In this document: one piece after another, positions 27,021 through 55,020 of the stretch
Layout of the letters: the number at the start of each line of letters is the position of its first letter
Numbering within the stretch: the stretch's first letter is position 1
Origin: Octopus vulgaris
Lineage: Eukaryota
DNA length: 64,000 nt
Assembly (NCBI GenBank): GCA_951406725.2
Contig: OX597827.1
Span: forward strand, 64,294,001 to 64,358,000
Direction of reading: 5' to 3'
Notes under the pieces: generated by a model
The model's database searches: none
Told to the model about the DNA's origin: nothing
What the model saw: the letters and a program-made list of their open reading frames with translations, nothing else
Program-made: the position numbers and the translations under genes

Positions 27021-27555
27021 GACCGCATCCTGTCCCCTTTAGTTGCTGCCTTTTCATCCCACATATATGACACTAACCACGTCTCTTCAATTCCTTTTCC
27101 TTCCCTCCCGGGCCCTCACAACTCTTCTTCACCTTAGACGTAAAATCCCTATACACGGTAATTCCACACAACGATGGTCTCTTAGCCCTCCAATACTTCC
27201 TCGATCGTCGCCCTGACCCCACACTCAGCACCCCCACCCTTCACCTGGCAGAGCTCATCCTCACCCTCAACTGCTTTACGTTCGCTGGGGAAACCTACCA
27301 ACAGGAGTCTGGAGTCGTGATGGGGATGAGAATGAGCCCCAAGCATTCTCTCAATTCTCCAGGCTGGCCCCAGAGCTATATGGTCGCTACATAGATGACA
27401 CCTCCCTCTCTCATGAACAACTGCCACTTCATCTCTTTCTTCTAGCTTCCACCCTTCTCTTCAATTCACTTCTATCTCTGACACCTCTGTTAACTTCCTT
27501 GACATCTCTCTTACCATTGACAACCCCACCCATTCCCTCACCACGTATATTTTCA
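27021..27555 (+). pseudogene. Penelope-like element RT fragment
   Basis: FFTLDVKSLYTVIPHNDGLLALQYFL and LAELILTLNCFTFAGETYQQESGVVMG. Confidence 0.75.
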
Positions 27556-27560
27556 CCAGT

Positions 27561-27695
27561 AAGAAATTTCGAAGTGAACAAGAAATGAAATCTCATTGGC
27601 TAAATAAACACAAAAAAAATTTCATGAGAGCTATAAGCCATCCAATGTATGATACCATAATGAAGAAGGTCCTTGAATGTATTAAACTTAAAGAG
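27561..27695 (+). pseudogene. Parvovirus-like NS1 fragment (type A, diverged copy of 41963-42085)
   Basis: KKFRSEQEMKSHWLN..NFMRAISHPMYDT.MKKVLECIKLK in both copies. Confidence 0.7.
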
Positions 27696-27711
27696 ATAAG
27701 AGGCAGATAAA

Positions 27712-27800
27712 ATGGCACCCTGTTTGTGAACCTCAATCATAACAGGTACATAGGCACAGTGTACATCGGATGAACCAGATGATGATTTATTATCAAGTAA
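27712..27800 (+). pseudogene. Short piggyBac transposase fragment
   Basis: Similar to 50281-50365 (YNK.MGGVDRLNQMMSYY region). Confidence 0.55.
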
Positions 27801-28009
27801 TAAATAGTACACAAGCGTTAAGTTGTATGATACACTTGGTCTTCAACAACAGAATGGCACTTCACAATTCTTGTGAACTGACATTACAAGATGGAAATCG
27901 CCAATTTAATAATGACAGTGAGGGACTAGATTTCTTTCGCAAACAATATTATTCCCAGTACTGTAAATAACCCAACAGCAGACAGGAAATCTGCTAGCGG
28001 CAGCGTACA

Positions 28010-30762
28010 TAGAAGCAAGAGACTTCCGTGGTTGGACAGCTTTGCATGATGCTGTGAATAACCATCAAACTGAAGCTGTGAAGCTCTTAATATCTCGGAG
28101 CAGCGTGGTGAATGTGAAGAACTAATACGGCCAGACTCCTCTCCATCTGGCAGCAGGGTCATGTGAGAAGGAATGGACAGATGTCGTGGCAGCATTAATA
28201 AAACATAGCGCTCTTGAGGTGAATGCACGAGATAAGAATGGTCACACACCTCTATACTGTGCCTGTTCAAGTGGATACACAAACACAGTTGGCATGTTGA
28301 GTAAAATGGCATCGATGTCAATGTGGTGGACAAAGGTGGTAACACACCAGAGGCAGTTCAGGAGCGTATTATACAATCTTTGATAAAATCAATGATGATG
28401 ACGCTGAAGGTGTGAAAACCTTAATAGAGAAGAATCCAGATCAAATTCACAAACCTAATGTAAGGGGACAAACTCCTTTAATGTTTGCCTGTGTAAACGG
28501 CAACAGAAGAATAATTGAGATGTTTATAGATGCAAGACAATTCCGTGGTTGGATAGACTTACATGATACTGTGAATAACCATAAAACTGATGCTGTGACG
28601 CTCTTAATATCTCGGAGCAGCGAGGTGAATGTGAAGAATGAATCCAGATATGATGATGCTGAAGGTGTGAAAACTTTAATAGAGAAGAAGCCAGATCAAA
28701 TTAAGAGGACAAACTCCTTTAATGTTTGCCTGTGTAAACGGCAACAGAAGAATAATTGAGATGTTTATAGATGCAAGACAATTCCGTGGTTGGATAGACT
28801 TACATGATACTGTGAATAGCCATAAAACGGATGCTGTGAAGCTCTTAATATCTCGGAGCAGCGCGGTGAATGTGAAGAACTAATAAGGCCAGACTCTCCT
28901 CCATTTGACAGTAGGGTCATGTGAGAAGGAATGGACAGATGTCGTGGCAGCATTAATAAAACATAGAGCTGTTGAGGTGAATGCACGAGATTAAGAAGGG
29001 TCGCACACATCTATACTGTGCCTGTTCAAGTGGATACACAAACACAGTTGGCATGTTGAGTAAAATGGCATCGATGTCAATGTGGTTGACAACAGTGGTA
29101 ACACACCAGAGGCAGTTCAGGAGCGTATTATACAATCTTTGATAAAATCAATGATGATGACGCTGAAGGTGTGAAAACCTTAATAGAGAAGAATCCAGAT
29201 CAAATTCACAAACGTAATGTAAGGGGACAAACTCCTTTAATGTATTCCCATGTAAGGGTCAACACAAGAATAATTGAGATGTTTATAGATGCAAGACACT
29301 TCCGTGGTTGGACATCTTTACATGATGCTGTGAATAGGCATCAACATCAAGCAGTGAAGCTCTTAATATCTCGGAGCATCGAGGTGAATGTAAAGAACTA
29401 ATATGGCCAGACTCCCCTCCATTTGGCTGCAGGGTCATGTGAGAAGGAATAGACAGATGGGATGGCAGTATTATTGCAACAGAGCGGTGTTCTGGTGAAT
29501 GCAAGAGATAAGAATGGTCGCATACCTCTACTCTGTGCCTGTTCAAGTGGATACACAAAAACATATACATAACCCAGAATAAAAACCCAATAATCGAATC
29601 TGAAGACATGGCGTATTATACAATCTTTGATAAAATCAAAGATGGTGACACTGAAGGTTTGAAAACCTTAATAGAGAAGAATCCAGGTCAAATTCACAAA
29701 CCTAATGTAAGGGGACAAACTCCTTTAATGTTTGCCTGTGTAAACGGCAACAGAAGAATAATTGAGATGTTTATAGATGCAAGACAATTCCGTGGTTGGA
29801 TAGACTTACATGATACTGTGAATAACCATAAAACTGATGCTGTGACGCTCTTAATATCTCGGAGCAGCGAGGTGAATGTGAAGAATGAATCCAGATATGA
29901 TGATGCTGAAGGTGTGAAAACTTTAATAGAGAAGAAGCCAGATCAAATTAAGGGGACAAACTCCTTTAATGTTTGCCTGTGTAAACGGCAACAGAAGAAT
30001 AATTGAGATGTTTATAGATGCAAGACAATTCCGTGGTTGGATAGCCTTACATGATACTGTGAATAGCCATAAAACGGATGCTGTGAAGCTCTTAATATCT
30101 CGGAGCAGCGCGGTGAATGTGAAGAACTAATACGGCCAGACTCCTCTCCATCTGGCAGCAGGGTCATGTGAGAAGGAATGGACAGATGTCGTGGCAGCAT
30201 TAATAAAACATAGTGCTCTTGAGGTGAATGCACGAGATTAAGAAGGGTCGCACACATCTATACTGTGCCTGTTCAAGTGGATACACAAACACAGTTGGCA
30301 TGTTGAGTAAAATGGCATCGATGTCAATGTGGTAGACAAAGGTGGTAACACACCAGAGGCAGTTCAGGAGCGTATTATACATACAATCTTTGATAAAATC
30401 AATGATGATGACGCTGAAGGTGTGAAAACCTTAATAGAGAAGAATCCAGATCAAATTCACAAACATAATGTAAGGGGACAAACTCCTTTAATGTATTCCC
30501 ATGTAAGGGGCAACACAAGAATAATTGAGATGTTTATAGATGCAAGACACTTCTGTGGTTGGACAGCTCTACATGATGCTGTGTAAAGGCGTCAGCTTGA
30601 AGCCGTGAAAATCTTAATATCTCAGAGGATCGAGGTGAATGTAAAGAACTAATATGGCCAGACTCCCCTCCATTTGGCTGCAGGGTCATGTGAGAAGGAA
30701 TGGACAGATGTGGAGGCAGTATCATTGCAACAGTGCGCAGTTCTGGTGAATCCACAAGATAA
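28010..30762 (+). pseudogene. Degenerate ankyrin-repeat array with ~1247-bp direct duplication
   Basis: GQTPLMFAC, GWTALHDAV, GQTPLHLAA and GHTPLYCAC motifs; many stops; ORF offsets 28765/30012 and 28953/30200. Confidence 0.85.
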
Positions 30763-30769
30763 ACACTGC

Positions 30770-31357
30770 AGGTAGATCAATGAAATTGTTCAACTATATT
30801 AAATAGTTATCCGGACTCAAAGAATATGCACTCATTAAGATGAAGCAAGAGTGGTGCCAGAAGCAAAACAATGAAAATTTCTTAGGAGCTTTAGCTCATC
30901 CTATGTTTGATTCAATAGCCAGAAATGTGGCCGATTCATGCAAAATGGAAATACTCGCCACTAAATTCCAAAACATGAAATGGAATAAATTCCATGTTCG
31001 TGAATATCACACTGTAGCTACATCACTACGTATATTTCAAAATATATTGAAAGTACAAAACATTCTTATAGATGAATTTGTAACAGACGTATGGAATCTT
31101 CTAAATCAAAAACTTCCAAAAACAAACACTTTCGTACTTGAAGGAGTCCCAAGTAGTGGAAAATCATATATTTGTCGCAGTATTGCACAACTCTTTCAAT
31201 ATTCAGAAACAATACAAGGTACATCTCTTTCCCTTTCCAAGATATGTACCAGACCGAAATTTGCCTCTTTTAGGAACCTAACACGACGTTAGAAACGCTT
31301 CAAACCTTCATAAAGTTGGCTGAAGGAGTAGACACTGCAGTATCCGTAAAATTCAAA
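30770..31357 (+). pseudogene. NS1: Parvovirus/densovirus NS1 SF3 helicase fragment (type B)
   Basis: KLPKTNTFVLEGVPSSGKS (Walker A); after a frameshift FPFQDM..ICLF*EP (Walker B) and QTFIKLAEG. Confidence 0.8.
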
Positions 31358-31645
31358 ACCAAACTCCTTTAATGTTTGCCTGTGTAAACGGCAACAGAAG
31401 AATAATTGAGATGTTTATAGATGCAAAGACACTTCCGTGGTTGGACAGCCTTACATGATACTGTGAATAGCCATAAAACGGATGCTGTGACGCTCTTAAT
31501 ATCTCGGAGCAGCGAGGTGAATGTGAAGAACTAATAAGGCCAGACTCTCCTCCATTTGACAGTAGGGTCATGTGAGAAGGAATGGACAGATGCTGTGAAA
31601 GCATTAATGAACCATAGCGCTCTTCAGGTGAGTGCACGAGATATG
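31358..31645 (+). pseudogene. Ankyrin-repeat fragment
   Basis: Same sequence family as the 28-30.7 kb array. Confidence 0.8.
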
Positions 31646-31844
31646 AAGGCTGGGGGGGGTGCAGTTTTGGAATTGAACATGCATGCGGAGCCTGAAATAT
31701 CAGAACAATTGACTGAGAATACCAGAATGGGATATTTTTCATTTATCATTTTCGTATTTCAATTTCCATATTTATGTAATTGTGATGTTTTATGTCCCCT
31801 CTGTTTAGCCCTTTATGGGTAATAAAGACATATATATAGGCTAG

Positions 31845-33005
31845 TCTAGGTGAGTTGTTTGCTACCATGAAATCGGAAGATGCTGCATCTTTCTTGGCAG
31901 CAAAGGTTATTATACCTAGCAATAAGAAGTGTAAAAAAGGGCACCGAATGATAAATTGGTAGCGAATAATGTTTGCTGGCGGTGTAATCGCAAAGGCTGC
32001 AATCAGGAGTTGTCTGTCCGGAAGGGAACATGGCTTGAAGGCTGCACGCTCCCTCTGCAGACCGTAGTCCTTTTTTTGTACTCTTGGGTCAAGGAACTGA
32101 CTACAGTGCGTTATTGTGTAGAAGAACTGGGGATGAGCCACGGTTCAGTTGTGGATTACAACAATTATGTGCGAGAAATATGCGCGCATGACTTGCTAAT
32201 GAACCCAATTGTAATAGGTGGTCCTGGGAAGATTGTCGAGATAGACGAGAGTCTTCTCTAGGAGGAAGTTTAATCGAGGAAGGGTGTTACCTCAGCAATG
32301 GGTATACGGTGGGGTGTGTCGTGAGACCAGAAGTTTTCCTTTATGCAGTACCTTGTACAAAATTGCAAACTTTCGTTCCTTCAAATTTATTTCATTTCAA
32401 ATTACAATAGGAAACTTGATGTGCCTTTTGGGCGTAATTCCACAACCTGCAAACACTGACGCTGACAATTTCGACAGGGACACGCTGCTCAGACTGCAAA
32501 ACATGCTTCATGTGCACAACAGCTATATTCGAACTGGGGATGAGCCACAGTTCAGCTGTGGACTACAACAATTATGTGCGAGAAATATGCGCGCATGACT
32601 TGCTAATGAACCCAATTGTAATAGGTGGTCCTGGGAAGATTGTCAAGACAGTCTTCTGTAGGAGGAAGTTTAATCGAGGAAGGGTGTTTACCTCAGCAAT
32701 GGGTATTCGGTGGGGTGTGTCGTGAGACCAGAGAAGTTTTCCTTTATGCAGTACCTTGTCGGAATTGCGACACACTCGAAGAATGCATCCGTCGCTCAAT
32801 CCTCCCAGGTACCACAATATTTAGTGACCTGTGGAGGGCTTATTCACATATTCCAGAGATCGAGGGATACAATTTGACAGAATGGTGAACCACAGCATCG
32901 AGTTTGTTGACTCCGTTGATAACACACACCCAACAAATAGAGAGTACTTGGGCGTGTTTGAAATGGGGTAACAAGCGACTTTGTGGTACATATCGTTCTA
33001 TGATT
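31845..33005 (+). pseudogene. Merlin (IS1595/ISXO2-like DDE) transposase family A, duplicated and interrupted
   Basis: WRC..C..SVRKGTW, IGGPGKIVEIDES, RKFNRGR..QQWVFGG, ILPGTTIFSDLWRAY. Confidence 0.85.
32360..32532 (+). pseudogene. Helitron RepHel fragment
   Basis: FLQIYF and DRDTLLRLQNMLHVHNSYIR. Confidence 0.65.
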
Positions 33006-33010
33006 GACAT

Positions 33011-33141
33011 ATAAATATATCTTAATTGTAGTGTGAGAAAAGTATATATATTCTAGATTTTTATAAAAATATATTCTTTCAAAAACATTTTATCATCAGA
33101 ATATATATACTTTTCTCACACTACAATTAAGATATATTTAT
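33011..33141. repeat. Near-perfect ~44-bp inverted repeat (hairpin/MITE-like)
   Basis: ataaatatatcttaattgtagtgtgagaaaagtatatatattct ... agaatatatatacttttctcacactacaattaagatatatttat. Confidence 0.85.
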
Positions 33142-33326
33142 TTTAAATCGTTCATCCTTCTCCCCCCCCCCCACAACAAAAATTAGTTTGAAAGAGGGGA
33201 CAGAGAAAGTTCTAAAATCTAACCAATCAGAGCTAACTGACTTCTTACCACGATAGTGAAAATAACTTTATTAGTTATTTTCATTTTATCTTCACCAGTT
33301 GAACTGTGAGATAAAATTAAAAAATA

Positions 33327-34205
33327 ATGTTGTATGAGATAGAAAGTATCGTGAAAGACTTTGATAGTATTTATTCCTTCCTCAAGGACAAAAAGGTCTT
33401 AAGTTCCTCTTCGCCAAATTGTTCGAGATGCCAGAGAGAGATGACTGATAAAACACAATCAAGAAAAAGTATTTCGCTGCCCAACTCACAAAGGGGAAAA
33501 AGAATCAATTAGAAGGAACTCCTATCTCGAAAATAGCAGATTGAAACTACATGATTTCATACATATAATATATTGTTGGGGCAATAACCTAACAATAACA
33601 GCAACAATAGCAATGACTGGATTGTCAAAATGTACCGTTATTCAATGGTTCCAATACATGCGAGATATCTGTAGTAACAATCTGGTCAACAATCCATACC
33701 AAATTGGTGGTGTCGGAAAAGTTGTTGAAATAGATGAAAGTCTGATGTGCAAGAGGAAGTACAATAGAGGGAGAACGCCACAAGAGAGATGGGTCTTTGG
33801 AGGTTATGATAGAGAAGAGAAAAAGGCTTCCTACTCTTCGTAGCTGACCGTTCCTCGGAAACTCTGCTACCCATCATCAAAAAATATATTAGACTGGGCA
33901 CAACAATTCATTCGGATTGCTGGGCCGCCTATAATGGGATTGCAGAAATGGATGTGACACCAAAATACATCCATTTCAAAGTAAACTATTCCCAGAATTT
34001 TGTGGATCCGCTAACAGGTGTACACACAAATTCTGTGGAATGTTACTGGAAAAATGCAAAAAGAAAATTTAAAACGATGATGGGGGTACATTCCACCATG
34101 GTGGACTCGTACCTTGAGTTTCTGTGGAAGGAACAGTATGGACAAAATGAAAACGATTGTGTGATGAATATTCTGAAACATCTTTCAGAATGGTATAAAA
34201 TTTGA
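33327..34205 (+). pseudogene. Merlin transposase family B, near full length, frameshifted
   Basis: IGGVGKVVEIDES..KRKYNRGR..WVFGG; HSDCWAAY; NFVDPLTGVHTNSVECYW; upstream CCAAT box; 5' part repeated at 51482-51860. Confidence 0.85.
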
Positions 34206-34968
34206 AGGGGTATGATGTCACGCGTGTATTGAAACCATTGAAAAGAAAATTTAAAACGATGATGAGGATACATTCCACCATGGTGGACTCGTACCTTGAG
34301 TTTCTGTGGAAGGAACAGTATGGACAAAATGAAAACGATTGTGATGAATATTCTGAAACATCTTTCAGAATGGTATAAAATTTGAAGGGGTATGATGTCA
34401 CGCGTGTATTGAAACCATTGAAAAGGAAATTTAAAACGATGATGAGGATATATTCCACCATGGTGGACTCGTACCTTGAGTTTCTGTGGAAGGAACAGTA
34501 TGGACAAAATGAAAACGATTGTGTGATGAATATTCTGAAACATCTTTCAGAATGGTATAAAATTTGAAGGGGTATGATGTCACGCGTGTATTGAAACCAT
34601 TGAAAAGAAAATTTAAAACGATGATGAGGATACATTCCACCATGGTGGACTCGTACCTTGAGTTTCTGTGGAAGGAACAGTATGGACAAAATGAAAACGA
34701 TTGTGTGATGAATATTCTGAAACATCTTTCAGAATGGTATAAAATTTGAAGGGGTATGATGTCACGCGTGTATTGAAACCATTGAAAAGAAAATTTAAAA
34801 CGATGATGAGGATACATTCCACCATGGTGGACTCGTACCTTGAGTTTCTGTGGAAGGAACAGTATGGACAAAATGAAAACGATTGTGTGATGAATATTCT
34901 GAAACATCTTTCAGAATGGTATAAAATTTGAAGGGGTATGATGTCACGAGTGTATTGAAACCATTGAA
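34059..34968. repeat. Tandem repeat, 180-182-bp unit, ~5 copies, built from the Merlin 3' end
   Basis: ORF offsets 34382/34564/34746. Confidence 0.95.
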
Positions 34969-37207
34969 TAACAGAAATTAGAACGTGACATTTCTGCTAA
35001 GCTGCCGCAATTGCTTAATTAAGACTTAAATTGAAAGGTGCAAATATGTGACGAGGTTGAAAAAAAATGTATTTATCTAATTGACTATTTTGCTACACTG
35101 TCATAAAATCGCTACAATATCATGAAAAAATTAAGGTATGTACAACATATATTATTGTATACATATATACAGTATCTACAATAAGTTAGTACACACAACG
35201 ATTTTTTAAATTTTTACTTCTTAGAACTTTATTTTTTCGTAGGATTTAAATGAAACTCGATGTAAACCTAGCCATATATGTAAATTTAAATATGCATAAA
35301 CGTTAGGGTTCAAATTTGTTGTTTATTACAAATTATAGGAGAAAATCCATAGTCACAGTACAATAAATTAGTACACAGCTATGGAAGTCACTAATCATGA
35401 ATAAATATTTACTTAAATAGCTATAAATTGCAGAACTTTCTGTTGGCACCTTTTTATTGTACCCTAATAAATAACCAAAGGCATTTCATTGGCTGTTTGT
35501 TTACATTACGCTGCTATTGCTTGGATCTATTGCTACCAAAGTTTCTCTCATATTATTCTTGGAAATGGCTCCTCGTGGCAATGAATTACATGAAAAAACT
35601 CGTGAAACTATTGTTAATTTATTCAAGAGTGGTCATTCATATACGGAAATAAGTGGCAATGTAAATATCAGCCGAAATACGGTAACAAAAGTTGTTCAAC
35701 GGTACAAAAAAGCTGGAACCGTCACAAATGGCTGCCGTCCCGGTCGACCAAATAAGTTTTGTGATCGAACTAAGAGGCGCATGAAACAACTTATAGAGGG
35801 AAGCAGACGTCGGAGTGCTGCTAGCGTCGCAGAAGAAATTTCACACAGTTTAAACGTAACTGAGTGCTCAGACAGTGCGCAACATTCTCCACGAAGACGG
35901 GTTTAAAGGCTGCATGCCCCGAAGGAAGCCTCTGCTGAAAACTTCCCACAAAAAGAAGCGTTGTGAATTTGCTAATAATCATAAAGACAAAGATATGCAG
36001 TTTTGGGACAAAATCCTTTGGTCTGACGAGACGAAAATAAATCTATTCGGCTCAGATGGCGTTAAGCGTGTGTGGCGACGAAAAGGGGAGGCTTACAAGG
36101 ATAAGTGTGTCGTGCCAACTGTCAAGCATGGAGGTGGGAGCTTGATGATTTGGGGGTGTATGAGTGCCAAAGGAGATAAACGACTTGCTTTCATCGAAGG
36201 AAAAATGGATTCAAAACTATTGCCAGATATTGGAGGAAAACATGTTACCAAGTTTAACAAGTGTTGGCAGACGTGGAGTTTTCCAGCAGGATAACGACCC
36301 TAAGCACACGTCGCGGCCTACGAAGGCGTTCTTAGAAAGTAAGCGAGTGAATACCTTACCATGGCCGAGTATGTCACCTGATTTGAACCCAATAGAGCAT
36401 CTGTGGGAGCATCTAAAACGGAAAATTGCAGGGAAAAATCCGAGAAATATTAACGAAAACAAGGAGGTCATCAAATGTAAATGGAACGCAATTCCGGCAG
36501 ACACATGTCGTAAACTAGTGGAACCAATGCCTAGGAGGTTGTCTGCTGTTATTGATAACAATGGAGGCCATACAAAGTATTAAAAATAGGCTTATTTGTT
36601 TAAAGCGCTCCTGTGTACTTACTTTTTGTTACTTGTTCTAAATGTTTTTGTTTAATTATTCTACATTGAAAAGATATTTGTTCCTTCATAGTTTATAAAG
36701 TTATTAAACCACTACATGGCTATGTTCACATCGAGTTTCATTTAAATCCTACGAAAAAAATATAGTTGTAAGAAGTAAAAATTTTTTAAAAATCGTTGTG
36801 TGTACTAACTTATTGTAGATACTGTATATACACTTTTAAAAATTATTTACTTTGTTCAAAAAATATTAATATTAATTAATTTTCAAGAATTATTTAATTT
36901 ATATAATTAATTCATTAATTTTATTCTGTAAAATAGCAATTCATTTATCTGTAAATCCGCGAGGAAAGCGACTATGTAATTTTTTTGTGTAAAATTGAAA
37001 ATGTTATATACACACACACACACACAAACACATATTTTTTGTGAAATCCAACACCTTTTTGTCTTAAAAAAGCAGAAATGTATCTGAAAAAATCCGGGGG
37101 GGGGGGGTTAACGCGCATGCGCAAGTCACCTCGTTGGATCTCGAGTAGAGAACCTACGTCTGGTGCACGCGCCCGTGCAACCGGGACCACTACAATAGAC
37201 AAGTACC
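34935..37207 (-). mobile_element. Truncated Merlin-type element in the opposite orientation, hosting the Tc1 insertion
   Basis: Minus strand reads SVIQWFQYTRDI (cf. TVIQWFQYMRDI at 33632); TIR-like ccgggaccact..aagtacc ends at 37207, as in the MITEs at 58150 and 60812. Confidence 0.55.
35170..36824 (+). mobile_element. Full-length Tc1 (DD34E) transposon with IR/DR-type ends; transposase 35565-36583 has two frameshifts
   Basis: TA-CAGT..ACTG-TA ends, >100-bp TIRs with inner repeats; GRP, ILWSDETKINLFG, TVKHGGGS, FQQDNDPKH, SPDLNPIEHLW. Confidence 0.95.
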
Positions 37208-37583
37208 TGATTGACATATCTCGGCGAATTCATGAGGTGGTGCAGACACGAGAAATGTGACCTTTGGGAGGAATTGCTGGCAAACATTAGAAATTTCTCC
37301 AATTATTGTTAATCCTTTCGGTACTAGATTAGCTGAGGATTACTTGACATTTTATATCTGCTGTAATATTTGCAGCTTTAATAAATTGTTATAGTATGAA
37401 ACAATTGTACTAAATTACCGGATCTATTCTTGTTGCTTATATATATACATATATATATATATATATGTGTATATTATATATTTATATATACTTTCATCAT
37501 CGTTTGAACAAGCAGACACTTAATTTTTCTCAGATAGAAAGACATCAACCCGGAATCAAAACCCAATAATCGAATTTGAAGAC

Positions 37584-39165: not shown

Positions 39166-39169
39166 GAGC

Positions 39170-41930: not shown

Positions 41931-41962
<32 letters not shown>

Positions 41963-42515: not shown

Positions 42516-42524
42516 AAAGTTATA

Positions 42525-43165
42525 TGTCCAGGAAAAGAAAAAAATGACTCTAGAGATGGTATACATAGCTATCAATAAATAGAATGACAGTCTATTGCAT
42601 GACATTGATAACACCCCATCAGCAGAACGGGTTCGAACACACAGGGTATTACCCAAACATACGGAAATCTACTAAATCGATCAGTTAAACTTGGAAACTA
42701 TACGCTCTAAATATAAAGCTGACATTTACGGTCCTCGACAAATCTTACATGAGTCGTTCGAGGACATATGTCGAAATTTCATCCCACAAACAGCCGAAAA
42801 AACAAAGACGACCATTTAAGGTAGGTGGTGTCTTGCATTCAGGTAGGCTGCATAAATGTGTGTGGCCTGTCGTCGAACTGGAAGCAAGGGCGCTTCCTAA
42901 ATGACGTCAGGTCACACCATTTGCAAATACGTGACATGAGCGTTACACCAGTACGTGAAGAACCAAATAAGACCCCCTCATTGACTCAGGAAGAAATAAT
43001 TTTTCTCGCATGAGGAAATAGGTACGGCACTGTGGTAGTGTAGTTTAGAACTGAAGGAACTGCTTGGAGGATGGCAGCAAGAACTGTAAAAACAGACAAA
43101 GTAATTCTTTTCCACTCATATATAGGAAGAAAAACAACCAGAATCAAGGTGGAAATATTTTGCAC
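42525..43165 (+). pseudogene. L1/Tx1-like LINE pieces (ORF1 end, ORF2 start, ORF1 internal), recurring at 47250-47700, 48547-48775 and 49247-49550
   Basis: IQVGCINV(R/C)GL resembles the APE N-terminal motif and follows the ORF1 stop; repeated blocks. Confidence 0.55.
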
Positions 43166-44300: not shown

Positions 44301-44660
44301 AAACCAAATGGACACAAACAAATATTGGAACACAATCATTTTCACATAATGTGGAAATGTAGTTCTCAACGTTGTCCATCAAATGACAGCACTTGGCAGA
44401 AAACTATCCAGGAATACTGGAAGGCTACAGGGTAAAAGCATAAGATACCAAACGCACAGCGTGTAAAATTTCCATCTGCATAAGCTAATTACTTTTGCAA
44501 ACCCCCTAGGCAATTCTTATTAACTACAACAGATGAAACAATTCAGCAACTTAATGATTGGTGTCATGAAGACTACATGGAAACCAACAGACAAACTTCA
44601 CCTAATAAACCATCAGTCTCTTTCCAACAACATTTCAGGGAAATCAATGAAGCTCTTTAA
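44300..44660 (+). pseudogene. Probable parvovirus NS1 N-terminal HUH nuclease fragment
   Basis: One frame reads EHNHFHIMW (HUH) ... NYFCKPPR (Y..K), with two stops. Confidence 0.5.
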
Positions 44661-44849
44661 CTACATAAAATATCTTTAGGGTTACACATAATTTTTTTCT
44701 CTTATTTCTTAATTTACTTTCTTTTATATAATTTGTAATATCGAACGGATAATGTAAACGTTTATCTTCATATTCTAGTCTGTATAATTTGTAACATCTT
44801 TGTTGCACATTCGAAAAATTGTTTTGTTGCTACCCACTGTTGGGTATGC

Positions 44850-45205
44850 AAGCTGCAGGCAAAAGCATGTCTGCTGAACCGATGTTAGGAGATAAAAGAC
44901 TGGACCACCTTCTACACAAGAGGAAGGAAGTACACTACTGTAGAGGTGGGGTTTACAAGTGAAGAAGAAGCAATGAGACACGCCACTATGGTCTTGAAAA
45001 CAACTAGGTGGGTACTCTTACCTACCTATTGCAGAAGACGAGCCGCGAGAGTAAGGATTGGAAAAGAGCCACCAGAAAAGAACGTATAAAGGCTGGTAGC
45101 AGCCATAATATACAATTGCAAAGATGTGGTGGAAATTCTCAAAGTAGAAAAGTCAAGAGATATCAACTGGTGGGGTTATGGTGTGAAGCCACAAGCTCCG
45201 ACGGG
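44850..45205 (+). pseudogene. LINE ORF1 fragment (paralog of the 43000 and 45756 pieces)
   Basis: RGRKYTTVEVGF..MVLKT..VLLPTY resembles GNRYGTVVV.F..TVKT..ILFHSY. Confidence 0.45.
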
Positions 45206-45209
45206 TCCC

Positions 45210-45485
45210 AGCAATCCTTCTAAAGGGGCTCTAACAAGACTACTTTAGATTCTCTTCCAGAGTCTTCCTTGCAACTGGGAGGTCTGCATATGTCATTTCT
45301 ATAATGGAGGTAGTAGAGTAATTGTTAAAAATTATAAACCTGTCTCTCTAACTTCACCTGTCAGCAAAGTCATGGAATACATTGTCAGGAAGAAACTCCT
45401 TGCATTCCTTGTAAATAATGACTTGCTCCCTGACACCCAGCATGGCTTCCGCTCAAGAAGAAGCTGCCTTACACAGCCTTTGTAA
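45210..45485 (+). pseudogene. CR1/Jockey-group RT fragment
   Basis: NYKPVSLTSPVSKVMEYIV..QHGFRSRRSCLTQ. Confidence 0.75.
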
Positions 45486-45537
45486 CATGCTTTGAGAAGA
45501 GCCATGAAAAGTCAACCTGCAACTGTGTGTAATAATC

Positions 45538-45585
45538 AGGAGAAGCCATGCCACGGTGAAATTTGTGGAAAAACTTGTTCCTTGG
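45538..45585 (+). pseudogene. Degenerate C2H2 zinc-finger remnant; similar pieces at 49637-49680 (+) and ~58700-58760 (-)
   Basis: EKPCHGEICGKT and EKPHHSEICGGT versus the consensus EKPYHCEICGKTF. Confidence 0.5.
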
Positions 45586-46374
45586 TCTGGGATGGATTTT
45601 CAATATAATCCACATAATTTCAAATCCTTTAAATACAAGCTATAAGGTCATGTCCAAAAAGTGGTGGTGAGTAAGAGAATTAATCCTTTAGCATTTAAAC
45701 AGGCTACATCTGGCCCCATCACTCGTTTTATGTTCAAGCTGGCCAAATTCAGCCAATGCCTGCAAAAAATGAAACCGTGGAAAAGTGTCTGGCGCCCATT
45801 TGGGACAAAATTGTATATACAGGAAAGAGAGTAAGAAGTGCTACAGTTGAGGTGCATTTCACAGATGCCGAAACGACAAAGCAAATATCTACGCAGACAT
45901 TGAGGAATGATGAAATAATCCGCATTCAGCTGAGAGGGACTGAGTGCTCGTGTGTCAGTAGAAGGAAGAAGACCGAGGTGTTTCAAGTGTTGGAGAGAAG
46001 GGATATGTAATGCCAGAATGTGGAAAAGTAAAAAATGGCAAAGAAGGTAGATGTTCCTCCCGCAAAAGAGAAAAAGTATGGAAACTAACAAGGAGGCGAA
46101 AAAAATGGGGGGAAAAAAAAACCTGAGAAAGAGAAAGAAAAAGGGAGTTACCGTTATGAAAGAGTGTACTTGGAGGACCAGAATGAAAGGAGTTGCAAAC
46201 AAGAACCTATATCTCTGGCACAGGCTCGCTGAATTTCTTCAGATACCATCTGAAGAGCAATATAGGGCTGAAGAGAAGACAACTGTCACAGGGGATATAC
46301 AAGAAAAGATGGAAGGATGTTGTGAGGAAGTTGGGAGTGACTGTCCCTACTTAACCCTTTCATCACTAACCCGG

Positions 46375-46795
46375 CCAAGAGAACCTATTGTTATTTAAAT
46401 GTAAAAAAACCGGCGATTGGTATCGATTAGACTATAATAATTACAAATCGCTAATTATGAAGGAACTACAAAAAAAATATAAGATCACATCTATAGAAAA
46501 CCTGAAGGATATTAACCGAAAAATAAAAGAAGTAATGACCAAACTGGATCTACTAGGTAAGACTGAACCTCTCAAACCTCAGGAGCCAAGGACTAACATC
46601 AAGGACCATAAAAAAGGACTCCCGGAAAACAGGAGTAAGACTAATATGCCCAACTAAGTCAGATATAGGAAGACTTAGCAAAACCATTCTGGACAGTTAT
46701 TCCATGGATTAAACCTCACATTCCACTCAATTTATGGATCAATACTGATGATGTTCTAGAGTGGTATAACTCCATTATTGATAGAAATGGTTGAC
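46375..46795 (+). pseudogene. Penelope-like element RT N-terminal fragment (second family)
   Basis: KC.KTGDWY..Y..LI..KYK, IKDHK and LWINTDDVLEWY match KADKT / LKDHK / QW.NT..VI.WF. Confidence 0.6.
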
Positions 46796-46799
46796 CGAC

Positions 46800-47660
46800 C
46801 TAGCAGAGCCAGAGCCTTAAAGTTACCATCCAGGCAGCACCAGAAATGCTAGAAGAAATTGTAGAGAACATCAACTTCAGTGAAGAGATCACTTTGCGAG
46901 TGGTGGTAGAGGGGCAAAAACCCCGGTGCTACAAATGGGCCACATTTGAGTGGACTGCCCCACCCGCAAAAAAGGAAGAAGGAAGCGGTGATGTGTTGAA
47001 AGGCGAAAGGATAAAGAAGGGAAAAAACAACAGGACGCCGACAGAAGAAAACGATTTCACTCCAGTGAGACAAAGAAAAACTCCTAAAAGAAGCACAAAA
47101 ACCCCAAGCACAAACAAGAAAAAAAAATACCCCACCCCACCACAAGAACCGCCCCCCCCCCCCCCTGCATCCAACTCTAGACAACCACCCCTACCCCTCA
47201 GTGCTGAACAATTTCCTCCCCACCCAGACTCCACCCTATCACCCCCACAATGTCCAGGAAAAGAAAAAAATTACTCTAGAGATGGTATACAAAGCTATCA
47301 ATAAATAGAATGACAGTCTATTGCATGACATTGATAACACCCTATCAGCGGAACGGGTTCGAACACACAGGGTATTACTCAAACATACGGAAATCTACTA
47401 AATCGATCAGTTAAACTGGGAAACTATACGCTCTAAATATAAAGCTGACATTTACGGTCCTTGACACAACTTACACGAGTCGTTGTTCGAGGACATATAT
47501 CGAAATTTCATCCCACGAACAGCCGAAAAAACAAAGACGACCATTTAAGGTAGGTGGTGTCTTGCATTCAGGCTGGCTGCATAAATGTGCGTGGCCTGTT
47601 GTCGAACTGGAAGCAAGGGCGCTTCCTAAATGACGTTAGGTCAAACCATTTGCAAATACG
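46800..47660 (+). pseudogene. L1/Tx1-like LINE ORF1 C-terminal half plus ORF2 start
   Basis: LRVVVEGQKPRCYK (eroded zinc knuckle), K/P-rich tail, then INVRGL. Confidence 0.55.
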
Positions 47661-47699
47661 TGACATGAACTTTACCAGTATGTGAAAAACCAAATTGGA

Positions 47700-48546
47700 A
47701 ATATTTTGCACAGTTGACTGCTCTAGATGCCATTTACAATGTACACTCCGAGAAAATACAAGCATCTTCTGATGTGGAAGGACTGTTCGCCGCCGAAGAC
47801 AAAGGCCAATGCAATGTGGATATTCTATATCGCTATACAACAACACTTTTTTTCGAGGGGAGTCAGATACCACCCTGTAAAGTCCTGTTATTTATAAATT
47901 CCTTATAGACTGTTGGTCGCATGCATTAGTCATGGAAAATTTAAACATTTCATATCCGACCTCGATTGATTGGCGATCCTTCTGCTTGGAGGTTTGTCAG
48001 CATTGGGTTGAAAATTACCAGGACCAAATCGGTGGACCAGGAGTTGAAGTAGAGATCGATGAGACGGTTATTGTAAGAAGAAAGTACAATCGTGGAAGAC
48101 TCCCAAAAACTATCTGGCTTTTCGGTGCGGCAGAGCGAGTAGCCCAAAAAAAAGTTTTGATACCTCTTTCATCTGAGTGTGGTGAAGAGGAAAGGCGAGA
48201 TGCCGCCACACTGATCCCCTTAATTACCAGATATATACGCCAAGGGTCCATAGTATATAGCGATTCTTGGGCTGCATATAACTCTTTTAGAAATCTCGGC
48301 TATACCCACTTCCGCATCAACCACAATGAAAATTTTGTTGATCCCACAAACGCATCGGTGCACACACAGACGATAGAGAGATTGTGGGGGTCAGTTAAGA
48401 GATCAGTTGTTCGCCCAGGGATTCGTGCCTGTTGCTTAAAGCAATACCCCGCCAAGTTCCTATTTACAGAAAGCATCAAACCTACAGCCAAGAGAATACA
48501 CGTATTCTTATTGGCAGCAGCAAGTCTTTATCCTGGCCCGAGATAA
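47700..48546 (+). pseudogene. Merlin transposase family D, uninterrupted copy (ORF 47932-48546); third partial copy at 48775-49247
   Basis: VEIDET, SDSWAAY, INH..FVDP..HTQTIERLW. Confidence 0.9.
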
Positions 48547-49794
48547 TTTCATCCCACGAACAGCCGAAAAAACAAAGATGACCATTTAAGGTAGGTGATG
48601 TCTCGCATTCAGGTAGGCTGCATAAATGTGCGTAGCCTGTCGTTGAACTGGAAGCAAGGGCACTTCCTAAATGACGTCAGGTCACAGCATTTACGTATAA
48701 GAGACCTGAGCAGTACACCCACACTCATATCTGGGAAGAATAACAACCAGAATCAAGGTGGAAATATTTTGCACAGTTGACTGCCCTAGATGCCATTTAC
48801 AATGTACACTCCACGAAAATACAAGCATCTTCTGATGTGGAAGGACTGTTCGCCGCCGAAGACAAAGGCCAACGCAATGTGGATATTCTATATCGCTATA
48901 CAACAACACTTTTTTTCGAGGGGAGTCAGATACCACCCTGTAAAATCCTGTTATTTGTAAATTACTTCCTTACAGACTGTTGGTCGCATGCATTAGTCAT
49001 GGAAAATTTAAACATTTCATATCCGACCTCGATTGATTGGCGATCCTTCTGCTTGGAGGTTTGTCAGCATTGGGGCTGAAAATTACCAGGACCAAATCGG
49101 TGGACCAGGAGTTGAAGTAGAGATTAATGAAACAGTTATTGTAAGAAGAAAGTATAATTGTGGAAGACTCCCAAAAACTATCCGGCTTTTCGGTGGGATA
49201 GAGCGAGTAGCCAAAAAAAAAAATTTTGATACCTTTCATCTGAGTGTGGGCTGCATAAATGTGCGTAGCCTGTCGTCGAACTGGAAGCAAGGGCGCTTCC
49301 TAAATGACGTCAGGTCACAGCATTTACGTATAAGAGACCTGAGCAGTACACCAGTACGTGAAGAACCAAATAACACCCCTCATTGACTCAGGAAGACAGA
49401 GGAGGAAATAGGTACGGCACTGTGGTAGTATAGCTTAGAACTGAAGAAACTGCTTGGAGGATGGCAGCAAGAACTGTAAAAACAGACAAAGTAATTCTTT
49501 CACACTCATATCTGGGAAGAAAAACAACCAGAATCAAGGTGGAAGTATTTTGTGTAATGTGATTAATGAAATGCTTGCAAATAAAAACCTTTTTCCTTTT
49601 TTAAACCTTATTCAAAGTGAATATGAGGTCGGCCTGAGAGAAACCACACCACAGTGAAATTTGTGGAGGAACTTTAACCTTAGTTCAAAAAGACTTTCAA
49701 AAATGGTCCCAAAGTATGGGAGTCAAATAATGAAACAAGGAGTTCAGTACTCTAATAAGAAATTTATACGTGTATGTATTTATTACACATGCAT

Positions 49795-50780
49795 ATAGAA
49801 TGATGGTGGGCTATAAAGGCCGGGTACGTTTCTGACAGTATATGCCCCGAAAGCCCACAAAATGGGGGATCAAAGTTTGGAAGATTTGCGAATCAAATAC
49901 TGGGTGCTGCTCAGGATTCGAATTTTATACAGGCAAAAGAGACAATCATGTAAGTCAGCATGGCCTAGGGTACGATGTGGTCCGGAATTTATCACTTCCA
50001 TACCATAACCAGGGCCGTATATTATTTTATTGACAGATTTTTCAGTTCGATCAAACTTGCAGAGAATTTAGATACTGTGGCAACACATACATGTGCTACA
50101 GTGATCGCTAGTAGAAAAGGACTGCCGTTGGATATAAAAAAAAAGGTGAAATGGCTTCTGCATATCCAAGTCTAAAAGGAATTAATCACCGCGATATTGC
50201 CATCAACGGCAGAAAGGAAATTTGCTAGCGACCGCGATCAATTGTCTGTCTACCTGTGCACGGCCACATGTGGATGAAAATGGCACGCCGTTTGTGAACC
50301 TTAATTATAACAAGTAGATGGGTGGAGTAGATCGGCTGAATCAGATGATGTCTTACTATCCAGTTGGCAGACCGGGGAATAAATGGTCATGATAACTGGT
50401 TTGGTATATAGTAAACATGAGTATTACTAATGTGTTTATACTATATGCCAAATCAGGACCGGCTCGGAAGCGATGCGACCATCTACAGTTCCGAGCAGAT
50501 GTAGTAACGCAACTAAGAGCTGGTTATTCCTAAAAAAAAAAAATAACCGTAGGGAGAAAAAGCAATGCCTGCCAGAGGGATATCCTTCTGAATTCAGCCG
50601 ATCTCCATAAATTAGAAAAAAATGGAGGGTCGCAAAAGGCAGTGTCGTGAATGCCTTCATCAAACAAGGAAAGCTCCTAGTGGAAGGGCTGTTGAAACAA
50701 CTTTCCAATGTGCATTCTGCAAGGTTGCATTATGTAGAGCAGGGTGCTTAACAAATTTTCACGATATGAATATTGTTTGA
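49795..50780 (+). pseudogene. piggyBac transposase (catalytic core plus C-terminal Cys-rich domain), degenerate
   Basis: QYMPRKPTKWGIKVW, FYTGK, DRFFSS, MGGVDRLNQM, C..C...TTFQCAFCKVALC. Confidence 0.85.
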
Positions 50781-51058
50781 TTTGTATATATGTGTGATTT
50801 GATTTTATAAATATTTTCAAAATTACTTCGTTTTTCTTTTTCTTTGTGTAATTTTAATTATAAATAAATATATTCTTGCATTATTTATTCATTATTGTTG
50901 TTTTTAAAAAAGAAATCAAACCAAATCTGCACAAATGACCACCACCGCGATCACATCCACCAATCAGCATGACCACTGACCACCACCGAAACCGCGCGTA
51001 ATTCAAAGTTTGAATGTTCTTCACTTTGATATCAACACGTGCGAAAAAATTTTCAATA

Positions 51059-51482
51059 TGGCTTCTGCATATCCAAGTCTAAAAGGAATTAATCACCGCG
51101 ATATTGCCATCGCCACGGCGATGTGATACCAGAAGATATTTTTTAGTGGCAGTGGAAGATCGGACAGCCGACACCCTTTTACAAATTATACAAGAGCATA
51201 TATTGCCTTGTACAACCATAATTTCCGACCTTTGGCGTTCGTATAACACGCTCAATCAGCTAGGATACAGGCATTTGACCTTGAATCATTCAATAAATTT
51301 TGTTGATCCGGTAAGATTTGCCACAACCCACCATATAGAATGTTTATGGAAGCATGTGAAGAATCGCAACAAAAGAGAAAATGGAACAGCCCGAAATTTA
51401 CTTCAGACCCATCTCATCGAATTCATGTGGCGTTATGAATTTAAGGACGAAATATTCGGAAAGTTATTGGAGCAAATTCGAC
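51059..51482 (+). pseudogene. Merlin transposase family E (start fused to C-terminal half)
   Basis: FLVAVEDRTADTL..ILP.TTIISDLWRSY..LNHSINFVDP..IECLW..EFMWR. Confidence 0.85.
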
Positions 51483-51862
51483 AGTTTGAAAGAGGGGACA
51501 GAGAGAGAGTTCTAAAATCTAACCAATCAGAGCTAACTGACTTCTTACCATGTGCTCTTGTATACTTTATTTTCACCAGATGAACTGTGAGATAAAATTA
51601 ATTACGTCTGTTAAATATTATTAAATATGTTATATGAGATAGAAAGTATCGTCAAAGACTTCGATACCATATATTCCTTCCTAAAGGAGAAAAATTTTGA
51701 GCAGCGTTTCTCCGCTTTGTGCAAAATGCCAGAGAGAAATGACTGATAAAACATAAAGAAAAGATATTTCGGTGCCCAACACACAAAGGGGAAAAAGTAT
51801 CAATTAGGAAGAAATCCTATCTTGAAAATAGTAAATTGAAATTACATAACTTTATGCACTTC
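51482..51862 (+). pseudogene. Merlin family B upstream region and 5' coding end (diverged copy of 33185-33560)
   Basis: Shared agtttgaaagaggggacagag..ctaaccaatcagagc and MLYEIESIVKDFD. Confidence 0.8.
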
Positions 51863-51933
51863 TGTATGTGTGTGCAAACAGATGTATGTATACATCATTA
51901 CAGTTGTGACGATTTCTAATAAAAAAGAATCTC

Positions 51934-52003
51934 TGAGAGAGGAGAGAGAGGAGAGAGGAGAGAGAGGAGAGAGAGAGAGGGGAGAGAGAGGAGAGAGAGA
52001 GAG

Positions 52004-52083
<80 letters not shown>

Positions 52084-52140
52084 GAGAGAGAGGAGAGAGA
52101 GAGAGAGAGAGAAAGTGTGTGTGTGTGTGTGTGTGTGTGC
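51934..52140. repeat. (GA)n-(GT)n microsatellite
   Basis: Direct reading. Confidence 0.95.
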
Positions 52141-52184
52141 ACATATGTATGGGTATATAACACGCATGCATGGAACTTACGGGC

Positions 52185-52410
52185 GTTGAATTGCTTAATT
52201 ACCTCGTAACTTCTACGGATTAAAAATAAAATATTTGTGCTACGCATTCGACACTTTAGCTCCGTCAGAAGAAAAAGAGGCTTTCAAACAAAGATATATT
52301 AGATACAAGTTACCGAATCCAGCATACTTTCTTGTAAAAATCTAAACTTAAGCTCAACCCAGCCATATGGGAAATACTTTTTGATAATCATGCTACTGAA
52401 TTACAAATTG
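52185..52410 (+). pseudogene. Probable NS1 helicase C-terminal fragment
   Basis: LITS, EEKEAFKQRYIRY and KLNPAIWEIL parallel EEQALKNRLFIY..KLNLLMW of type C. Confidence 0.5.
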
Positions 52411-53959
52411 GATCACGCAGTTCCGTCCGATGAAGAAAACGTACTTAAAGTAATGGACATGATGGAAAATAAAAACCAAAGCAGCGACAACGATACAGAT
52501 GCGGTTGACAGCAGTACCGAACTCACCCCCCCAAAAAAAAGGAACCTGTGACACCACCGAACTCTCAGAATTAAATAAAGATTGTATAAAAGAAAAAGAA
52601 AAAGATGAAGGCATGCAAGTAATGCTGCTGCACCTTCATCATACTTTCTATCTATCTCGCGGACAGACAGACGCAAGTCAAATGGGCTCCACGTAAGTTG
52701 GTATTTTTATACGTTCAAAAGTGTATATTGACAAATATTTTGTGTCTAAAAGTTGTGCAACAACATCCACTCTTATACTTGAAGCCGAAGCCGAACCGAT
52801 ATCAAAGAAAGGCCAAAGTGATACACTAGTATCAAAGAAAGGCCAAAGTGCAAGTCAAGCGTGACGCAGAGACAAAAGAGCAAGATTCCTTGCAACCAGA
52901 TGCTGAACCTGACAGTTTGAACACTACTAACACCACCACCATAGGAATATTCCCTTGTATTTGTTTGTCATTCTGACTGTGGCCAAGCTGGAGCACTGCC
53001 TATAGTCGAGCGCTTGATGAATGAGCTAACTTGAGGTTGAACATCAAAAGATAAACAAAGAAAGATAAGTGATGGGGTGTGGCTTGTGGGGTCCCAGCAT
53101 CTCTCACACCATATTATTTCATTCACCTTTACCTTGTATACACCTTGTTCAGTTTGGTTAGATTAAAAAAGGAGGTCAAACTACAGTTGTGGATTGGTGT
53201 AATTTCTGTCGTAAAGTATGTGAACAAATTCCATTGAAATCGACGATTTGAATGCCAATGGACAGCCATTAATTCTACAGAATTTTTATTTTAACACAAA
53301 TTTTCGTTAGTAAATGATTTTCCCTTACCCAACCACATGTGGTCCTAGTGGAGATATGCACTGATCAAACGATTATCTTTAAGGCTGTGTGAATGTGTGA
53401 TTGTTTAAAGATTCTTCAATTTTGATTTTGAAGTATTTAAAATTATTTGTTGCACAAAAAGCGGTTTCTTATCACTACAGGCATGGATGTATGATTAAGA
53501 AATTTACTTTGCAAACACGCAGAATCAAGTTCAATCCCACTACACAACACACAGGGTCAAGAGTCTATAGTCTCAGGTTGACCAACGTCTTATGGAAGAA
53601 AACTGTGCAGAAGCCTGTCTAGTGTATGTGTGTACATGTCTGACAACACATCCTACTAAAACAAAATTTGTGTTACGGCAAAGATGAATCAACCAACCAG
53701 AAAAATGTACATTGACAAAATAAGGTTGCTGTCACCGACCAAACATAGGAAGGCTTTGCACCCCACCCCACAACATTTTCGCCATAAATAGAGAACTATT
53801 AGCTTCTGAATTTTGAAAATTTGAGGTAACTTTGGCCAATCATGAGCCATGTCTGCGACTATAAGGAATATATTCTACCCCCATGTTGATAAAAAATATT
53901 CTACGTAAAACCATGTGTGGACGCTGTGTTCCCCTGCTTGTGTCCATGTTTCATTATAG

Positions 53960-55020
53960 CAGCAAGCTCCTGTAACCTCGAGTCTGTCATGGAGACACGG
54001 AGAGTAGAGGATGCGGTTTTGTACTTGCATTGCACAGCTGTTGATAATAACAGCTATGTCAGGGAAGTATTCAAAGAGGTCCCGCTCCGCCATCCAGTTA
54101 AGGTTGGTGATCCTAGGAAGATTGTCGAGATTGGCAAAATAGTATTCTCAAGACAAGTACAACTGAAGGGTCCTACCCAAGCAGTGGGCTTTTGGAGGAG
54201 TGTCAAGAAATGAGACCATTTTTTTCTTTGTGGCACCATGTTGGAATCATGACACATTGGAGGAATGCATACAACACTCAATTCTTCCAGGAACCAAAAG
54301 TTTTCAGTGATTTGTGGACGGCATACTCTCACATTACTGAAATTGACGGTTACAGGTAATTCTTTAGTGCATGATGATATTAAAGGGGAAATAACAATTA
54401 GCAGAGATAATTAAATTCTCACTGAAAGTAAATTTCTTCATTAAAAGTAATATCGCAGTGAGTGGCATCCTGGCCGTTGGCTTTTCGGTGGCATTGAAAG
54501 AATTTGCAAAAAATGCTTACAAGTCGATGTGTCTGAGCGTACTGAACAGACATCATCTGATCTAATTCAATGCTGGATTCTCCCATAGAGTCACGGCTGG
54601 TGATCCTACAGCAATATCGGAAGCCTAAATGACAGCGTGTATACTCACAAAGTGGTTGTGCATCAGAAGTTCTGCATGTCAAATTATTAGGCAGCTCTTT
54701 TTTTATTGATGGCTATAGCCAACATCTACATAGTTTAACAGCAAGTTGACTTATTTATCTCCCCTTTTAATTTTTATTTACTTCTTTACAAAGGTGCTGA
54801 AAGATAACCACGGTTACAATTTTAAGCTTAGAACAGTGAACCACAAAATTGGGGTTTGTTGAAGCCAGACTCAAAAAGTGGAGAGTGCATGAGCCTCTAT
54901 AAAGTGAGGTAATAAATGACAGTGACACTCACCATTGTATGGTTGACTCATATCTCAGAGTTTATGTGGTACAGGAGACATGAAAATTATTTGTTCGAGA
55001 AATTGCTCAAATGCAGTTTT
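53960..55020 (+). pseudogene. Old Merlin transposase remnants (family A-like)
   Basis: AVDNNSYVREV..PVKVGDPRKIVEI; FSDLW; VNH; EFMW. Confidence 0.6.

Follow-up and report, generated by a model that had tools for sequence, protein, structure and literature searches.

Structure of the locus

Positions 64,294,001–64,358,000 of the Octopus vulgaris contig OX597827.1 (labelled C14) form the 64,000-nucleotide stretch analyzed here, referred to as the window; the contig measures 84.7 Mb in a 2.8-Gb genome of 227 contigs, whose repeat types and C2H2 zinc-finger arrays are in keeping with an octopus. Between 27,021 and 55,213 the window holds a patchwork of short pieces of transposons, single-stranded DNA (ssDNA) viruses and a host gene family, nearly all on the plus strand, which we call the archive. 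A piece map was compiled by hand from genome searches for source copies and local BLAST. The 45 mapped pieces cover 86% of the archive with a median size of 399 bp, and 35 of them measure 90–1000 bp, in agreement with the original prediction of more than 30 abutting fragments of mostly 0.1–1 kb. The right limit given there, 55,020, was too short, as the last Merlin piece ends only at 55,213. Features are listed below (RT, reverse transcriptase; LINE and SINE, long and short interspersed nuclear element; MITE, miniature inverted-repeat transposable element; CRESS, circular Rep-encoding single-stranded DNA).

27,021–55,213: whole archive, co-oriented patchwork without the common repeats of the flank
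27,021–27,540, plus: Penelope-type RT piece (clade name from motifs)
27,543–27,692, plus: parvoviral NS1 piece, C-like
27,709–27,798, plus: piggyBac piece, 79% like 50,277–50,364 (self-comparison)
27,808–27,965, plus: Merlin C family, 5' part
27,960–30,760, plus: array of intronless (processed) ankyrin copies of a multi-exon host gene family
30,768–31,357, plus: parvoviral NS1 helicase piece A, broken
31,358–31,650, plus: ankyrin duplicate
31,737–31,832, plus: SINE tail remnant (presumed polarity)
31,830–33,008, plus: two Merlin A copies (92% alike) flanking a Helitron piece
32,428–32,532, plus: Helitron RepHel piece
33,011–33,077, minus: fold-back of the Merlin B 5' end (first exception)
33,078–37,207, plus: Merlin B with a 182-bp fivefold tandem duplication, split by Tc1
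35,170–36,829, plus: Tc1, full length; inverted repeats, TA target duplication
37,524–39,152, plus: second processed ankyrin copy, 189-bp sixfold tandem duplication
39,153–39,958, plus: RTE-type LINE 5' coding piece, 2.5 copies
39,959–40,750, plus: parvoviral NS1 piece B, broken
40,994–41,555, no sense strand: older MITE, one arm
41,861–42,512, plus: parvoviral NS1 piece C, broken
42,524–43,161, plus: Tx1/L1-type pieces X (duplicate) and U
43,162–44,306, plus: Merlin C piece split by the CRESS piece
43,729–44,140, plus: N-terminal Rep piece of a CRESS virus, preceded by non-coding DNA
44,334–44,720, plus: parvoviral NS1 N-terminal piece D
44,800–46,354, plus: Tx1/L1-type pieces Y, T and W, and a CR1-type RT piece (45,250–45,488)
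46,406–46,787, plus: second Penelope-type piece (clade name from motifs)
46,808–49,552, plus: Tx1-type X and Merlin C copies 2 and 3, local duplicates
49,817–50,800, plus: piggyBac piece; 54 bp within it are identical to 51,058–51,111
51,058–51,892, plus: Merlin D and Merlin B2 pieces
52,644–52,886, plus: young Tx1-type LINE, 5' part
52,950–53,011, minus: SINE tail remnant (second exception; presumed polarity)
53,784–55,213, plus: Merlin E split by Merlin F (54,440–54,690)
55,214–59,050, minus: transcribed leader of a putative long minus-strand exon (contig depth)
59,051–59,080, minus: splice acceptor, polypyrimidine tract and AG, where contigs of sequencing runs X1 and X3 stop
62,000–64,000, strand undefined: CpG-rich stretch, candidate promoter or first exon (observed/expected ratio 1.5)

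After collapsing duplicates, 30 of the 32 independent oriented pieces lie on the plus strand (binomial p = 2.5e-7), so the predicted strand bias persists after annotation. The near-total bias was foreseen with a single Merlin end as exception; a second minus-strand piece, the SINE tail remnant, has to be added. Orientation was also scanned strand-blind with Pfam on all stop-to-stop segments of at least 52 amino acids from both strands of 26.8–55.6 kb, six GA-repeat segments excluded. Mobile-element or ankyrin matches were obtained for 26 of 100 plus segments vs 0 of 124 minus segments; apart from these, only unrelated sub-threshold matches were seen, in two minus and three plus segments. Self-comparison inside the archive yielded 93 same-strand vs 2 opposite-strand pairs, both of the latter being an element's own inverted repeats. 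Polarity is common to DNA transposons, LINEs, viruses and host cDNA, and is as strong for pieces of 50–150 bp as for those of kilobase length. The archive is a real, non-random structure. Many of its pieces are local duplicates, and tandem and segmental duplications are frequent. No LTR (long terminal repeat)-element domain was found among the Pfam matches in the window.

The flanks are of mixed orientation, as had been stated. Flank–flank self-matches number 115 plus and 136 minus, and the 127 left-flank segments scanned with Pfam gave a mariner on the plus strand (piece at 18,819) and a CR1-like LINE on the minus strand (20,659–23,866, with a 539-amino-acid RT open reading frame (ORF)). Repeats of the left flank, presumably mostly SINEs, make up 46% of that flank (inflated, as the flank is the library), 0% of 27,021–55,020 and 7% of the right flank. 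Across 28 background stretches (7–10 kb each, fetched for other reasons) the median was 5.7%, and none fell below 1%. Just left of the archive, near the presumed 3' end of the transcript considered below, a tandem array (25,793–26,018) comprises about six 32–36-bp units with A-runs and a constant core; the core motif was absent from the 30 loci checked.

Sources of the pieces

All element types named in the original prediction (NS1, CRESS Rep, Merlin, piggyBac, Helitron, two Penelope, RTE, CR1, L1/Tx1 and Tc1) were found. The expected minimum of five Merlin families was exceeded, with six lineages (28–50% identical) plus a second B subfamily. Most pieces are fragments, as described, but Tc1 is a canonical full-length, TA-flanked insertion, co-oriented with the archive, and Merlin B aligns to one dispersed copy over about 2 kb, its coding part being 93–96% alike. 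The Helitron piece shares 89% amino acid identity with long RepHel-type ORFs. On the LINE side there are Penelope-type (two), RTE-type and CR1-type (one each) and Tx1/L1-type (several) pieces. We take the names Penelope, RTE, CR1, Tx1 and Helitron from motifs; related copies of these pieces carry RT, endonuclease or GIY-YIG matches. Several cognate elements are young, with pieces 93–98% identical to dispersed copies. In the young Tx1-type LINE piece (52,644–52,886) the first 128 bp are 95–98% like many such copies. A spliced-mRNA origin of the Merlin C piece was ruled out, since the source continues in frame at the tested junction.

Two further observations concern unassigned sequence. A broken, A-rich, ORF-like stretch at 52,150–52,640 is possibly derived from an undescribed virus or element; genome and protein searches with the ORF at 52,303–52,548 found no second genomic copy and no homolog. 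Related short stretches, spotted by eye, occur at 45,540–45,650 and 49,600–49,720 (both plus, archive) and at 58,690–58,760 (minus, leader).

The five parvoviral NS1 pieces represent at least three lineages that are 29–39% identical to each other, and piece B is 64–81% identical to eight unnamed proteins. The CRESS Rep piece is 33–50% identical to viral contigs, mostly of about 2 kb. It replaces 39 bp of Merlin C, has no target duplication and carries upstream non-coding DNA. All six virus pieces are on the plus strand, i.e. opposite to the putative transcript. The only genome-wide Viral_Rep match and two of at least nine Parvo_NS1 matches fall in the archive, both counts being lower bounds. 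No further CRESS pieces were found in the window or in 40 fetched loci.

Ankyrin repeats, missing from the original list of contents, fill about 4.7 kb of the archive. These pieces match a multi-copy host gene family exon by exon, at 69–89% identity to six fetched dispersed loci. The matches end at or beside AG and GT boundaries. Because the archive joins exons that the host loci keep kilobases apart at these boundaries, the ankyrin pieces are processed cDNA copies of a host gene, oriented as the rest of the archive. A viral or transposon origin was ruled out: no close protein relative was found, yet exon-by-exon host paralogs exist. The archive is therefore not only a record of viruses and transposons, both of which it does contain, since processed host-gene sequence is present as well. 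The multi-exon family is itself expanded (loci on C1, C31, C5, C6, C10 and C9; L067–L078), with many copies on C31. At C9:53.80 Mb a tandem array holds at least 14 copies of one ankyrin exon, splice sites included.

Acquisition occurred by canonical transposition (Tc1), ragged replacement (CRESS), spliced-cDNA capture (ankyrin) and local duplication. At least four routes thus fill the archive, all yielding one polarity.

Putative transcription of the opposite strand

Contigs of four public runs (X1, X3, X5 and X10), presumed to be RNA, were aligned to 52,150–62,500. In X1 and X3, from one study, contig alignment ends exactly at 59,050, followed by 28 and 93 further letters. This position is the first base past a minus-strand polypyrimidine–AG acceptor. 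Depth in unique bins is 21–57 just left of it vs 0–8 to the right. Masking does not explain the stop, because skipped repeats correspond to homopolymers elsewhere. The leader (55,214–59,050) has a depth of about 9–66 in unique bins of both runs. X3 contigs carry on into the archive to 52,165 at depth 14–26, and one of 2,917 nt spans several junctions and the right border of the archive with no foreign letters. This pattern points indirectly to a spliced RNA from the minus strand, with a long exon that would extend into the archive and lie antisense to the pieces, as had been predicted from the orientation of the pieces.

Candidate donors upstream of the acceptor are located at 62,553, 63,269 and 65,280. 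For donors at 60,726 and 61,075, within the aligned stretch, no joint was among the alignment rows listed, and bin depth argues against 60,726. The CpG-rich stretch at 62–64 kb is a candidate promoter or first exon only. CpG-rich hairpin MITEs cluster in the putative promoter and leader (58,140–58,240; 60,820–61,035; 62,190–62,465; 62,645–63,200).

Related loci elsewhere in the genome

Four of the seven other fetched Parvo_NS1 loci are co-oriented patchworks. A further locus (C25), found by a different NS1 region, served as a prospective test: it was fetched after co-orientation had been predicted, and the prediction held. The five are given with element matches on the same strand as/opposite strand to the parvoviral piece.

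C19a, C19:23.958–23.992 Mb: 11/0; 0% flank repeats over 34 kb
C9a, C9:9.50 to beyond 9.58 Mb: 21/4; near 0% flank repeats over more than 80 kb
C12:68.50–68.576 Mb: 24/1; weaker repeat-poverty
C29:19.146–19.162 Mb: 10/1; weaker repeat-poverty
C25:13.688–13.734 Mb: 19/2 (80 kb fetched); 46-kb zone with 0–6% flank repeats

Strand-blind Pfam agrees with these element-protein tallies. With the present locus included, archives account for six of nine parvoviral loci, and their lengths range from about 16 kb to more than 84 kb. Few pieces are common to them, and the order differs. No border element or promoter sequence common to them was found, only common MITEs being matched, and CpG peaks at the right ends of the sister loci are inconsistent. 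A single gag-protease match was seen, in C9a.

Several features of these regions were noted in passing. RTE-type LINEs with intact endonuclease–RT ORFs of 1,073 and 1,101 amino acids lie at L048:1039–4257 (C9a) and L044:5163–8465 (C19b), both oriented like the parvoviral piece. Near C19b, L045:8245–8649 holds a C-terminal piece of 3-hydroxyacyl-CoA dehydrogenase, possibly a processed host copy. At C12:68.52–68.535 Mb (L041, L021) a unit of about 1.6 kb with a Helitron helicase piece is repeated head-to-tail at least seven times. Element matches at C20:32.05–32.09 Mb (L046, L023, L024, L047) fall into strand blocks, plus to 13 kb (with one minus), minus at 18–33 kb and plus thereafter; this could be an inverted or bidirectional locus.

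Interpretation and alternatives

The archive is probably a uni-strand locus resembling a PIWI-interacting RNA (piRNA) cluster, which has grown by transposition, by ragged capture of DNA, by capture of cDNA and by local duplication. A Pol II transcript would start to the right of 59 kb, splice into the acceptor at 59,050 and run leftwards as one very long exon, antisense to nearly all pieces. This exon is indirectly supported from 59.0 to 52.2 kb and would extend beyond. Processing would yield PIWI-bound small RNAs that silence the cognate transposons, ssDNA viruses and perhaps the host ankyrin family, the antisense pieces being kept by selection, directional insertion or both. Four Piwi-domain gene loci are present in the genome (PIWI and AGO clades unsorted), which would also contain at least five further loci of this kind.

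A number of points weigh against such a function. The locus is classed here only from sequence and presumed-RNA contigs, into a class itself defined by small RNAs. Many pieces are strongly diverged from present copies (ankyrin 69–89%, MITE about 75%, Merlin E 71–80%) and would therefore be too far from them for efficient targeting. The hand-made orientation tally presumes independence, and 14% of the archive carries no annotation. The AT skew of the archive (+0.12) is not exceptional and was given no weight, because background reaches +0.35. Both runs supporting the step at 59,050 come from one study, and the step is not shown by X5 (depth 9 right of the acceptor, 3 left) or X10 (no cover there). 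X1 lacks cover over 52,150–55,263, though a fraction of 0.92 of the words of 39,960–47,240 is present in it. The splice joint was not among the alignment rows listed, no upstream exon joined to 59,050 was located in the contig alignments over 52,150–62,500, and no single contig connects 59,050 with the archive. Three of the nine parvoviral loci are not archives (C5, ordinary; C20, 4 plus/5 minus; C19b at C19:2.6 Mb, 3 plus/1 minus), C12 and C29 are only weakly repeat-poor, and the sister tallies count local duplicates and library self-hits.

A more far-reaching idea, which we consider unlikely, is an acquisition system in which transcription-coupled repair or reverse transcription inserts short invader pieces antisense into a few dedicated long exons. 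Directed capture of this kind is compatible with the data, given that pieces of 50–150 bp are as polarised as those of kilobase length, that the ends are ragged, that the common SINEs are missing and that archives make up six of nine parvoviral loci. If true, cephalopods would possess a heritable, spacer-like memory of transposons, ssDNA viruses and occasionally their own expanding gene families.

Quite unlikely, in our view, is a neutral sink with no small-RNA function, i.e. a fragile transcribed site patched one-way by DNA or reverse-transcribed RNA through end healing and template jumping. Ragged ends without target duplications (the CRESS junction), spliced host cDNA, the 54-bp identical local copy, the many tandem duplications and the equal polarity of 50–150-bp and long pieces all speak for it. 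RT template switching has moreover been proposed for the shared orientation of endogenous viral elements (EVEs) in Aedes (10.1101/127498). However, patching leaves unexplained the co-orientation of a canonical Tc1 insertion, the absence of the genome's most abundant, RNA-mobilised SINEs and the antisense polarity relative to the transcript. The single Merlin junction tested is not a splice junction, and upstream non-coding DNA forms part of the CRESS piece.

We give a low probability to a long non-coding RNA or giant last exon, in which bias would arise only from selection against sense insertions that terminate or mis-splice the transcript, with any silencing by direct pairing, endogenous small interfering RNA or editing rather than by PIWI. 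The minus-strand transcript does appear spliced, no evident coding gene lies in the next 20 kb to the right (64–84 kb), and a polyadenylation-signal argument has been raised for flamenco-like loci (PMC10643416). Avoidance of such signals is not seen here, however: the transcript strand shows no depletion of AATAAA, with 18 occurrences in 28 kb against about 12.5 expected from base composition, and internal coding pieces without polyadenylation signals are just as polarised. Virus enrichment and five sister loci of differing content would also remain unexplained.

Gene pieces captured by cargo-carrying elements mostly share one orientation, and a Helitron piece is present in the archive. That the archive is the relic of a giant Helitron or Pack-type element gathering co-oriented fragments is nevertheless very improbable. 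Genome searches (40 scored candidates per search) matched single pieces only, with no copy outside the window spanning two neighbours among the scored candidates. Archives share few pieces, in different order, and no end sequence common to them was seen; they are therefore not copies of one composite element.

An assembly artefact or contaminant patchwork, suggested by the many local near-duplicates at 47–49.5 kb and the tandem arrays, can be dismissed with near certainty, because 20 runs from 7 studies under 4 organism labels hold fractions of 0.32–0.92 of the words of 39,960–47,240 and an independent 2.9-kb contig crosses junctions of a locus embedded in the 84.7-Mb contig.

Comparison with known systems

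The locus, read as a piRNA-cluster-like source, resembles Drosophila flamenco and flam-like clusters, in which a one-strand, promoter-driven, spliced precursor carries antisense transposable element (TE) remnants; such loci were first picked by strand bias in genome sequence (PMC10643416). Dense TE remnants and a strong orientation bias, the marks of uni-strand clusters, are found here too (86% annotated, 30 of 32 on one strand). In flamenco, however, Gypsy LTR elements drive the bias and loci extend to hundreds of kb (PMC10643416). The octopus archive has no LTR-element domain, and the Gypsy/endogenous-retrovirus LTR-driven bias of flamenco-like loci in the strict sense is not seen in the window. 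Its pieces, of median 0.4 kb, come instead from Merlin, Tc1, piggyBac, Helitron, LINEs, ssDNA viruses and host cDNA.

EVE clusters of Aedes aegypti likewise contain virus pieces of several families among TE fragments in one orientation, and antisense piRNAs are reported there (10.1101/127498; PMC7522710). Virus pieces antisense to the putative transcript are found in the octopus as well. The Aedes EVEs derive from RNA viruses in LTR-dense loci, with capture ascribed to LTR template switching (10.1101/127498), whereas those of the octopus derive from ssDNA viruses (parvoviral, CRESS) without LTR context. In Penaeus monodon, EVE clusters of infectious hypodermal and haematopoietic necrosis virus consist of jumbled parvoviral fragments proposed to be piRNA-like, yet these are scrambled in direction and of one virus type per cluster (PMC9357335). 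The octopus archive is co-oriented and combines several viruses with many TEs.

Gastropod and bivalve piRNA clusters are enriched in a non-representative, young subset of TEs; they are defined by small RNAs, favour Gypsy, Kolobok, hAT or R2, and include no cephalopod loci (PMC6128900). Neither 'strand' nor 'viral' appears as a word in the main text of that work. It reports Piwil1/2 as conserved in molluscs, with O. bimaculoides in the analysis, and documents somatic molluscan piRNAs (PMC6128900). piRNAs have been reported in O. bimaculoides (PMC12479628), and the supplement of that paper may list piRNA loci, possibly orthologs of these archives. As far as its text was available, PMC9115989 mentions piRNA only among its references. 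No description of cephalopod loci of this kind was found in the literature, supplements and subscription papers lying outside the scope of the search, and no relevant literature was found on endogenous parvoviruses in octopus.

Mammalian pachytene clusters are TE-poor, and an antisense pseudogene role is known for them. Their long unspliced exons and the processed host-gene copy in a precursor would be paralleled in the octopus (PMC7782496, PMC4105748, PMC6461890). The long exons of pachytene clusters are first exons, whereas that of the archive would follow an intron and consists almost wholly of foreign sequence.

Confirmation would make these the first uni-strand sources of piRNAs mapped in a cephalopod, recognisable from sequence alone, with parvoviral matches as an efficient pointer to them (6 of 9 here). 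With octopus small-RNA and population data, two questions could be put to the test directly: does cluster polarity arise by selection on random insertions or by directed capture, and do integrated pieces of DNA viruses serve a mollusc as inherited guides against viruses? Unlike the flamenco and Aedes clusters, these loci would record a host gene family along with DNA transposons, LINEs and ssDNA viruses, and would do so outside any LTR context.

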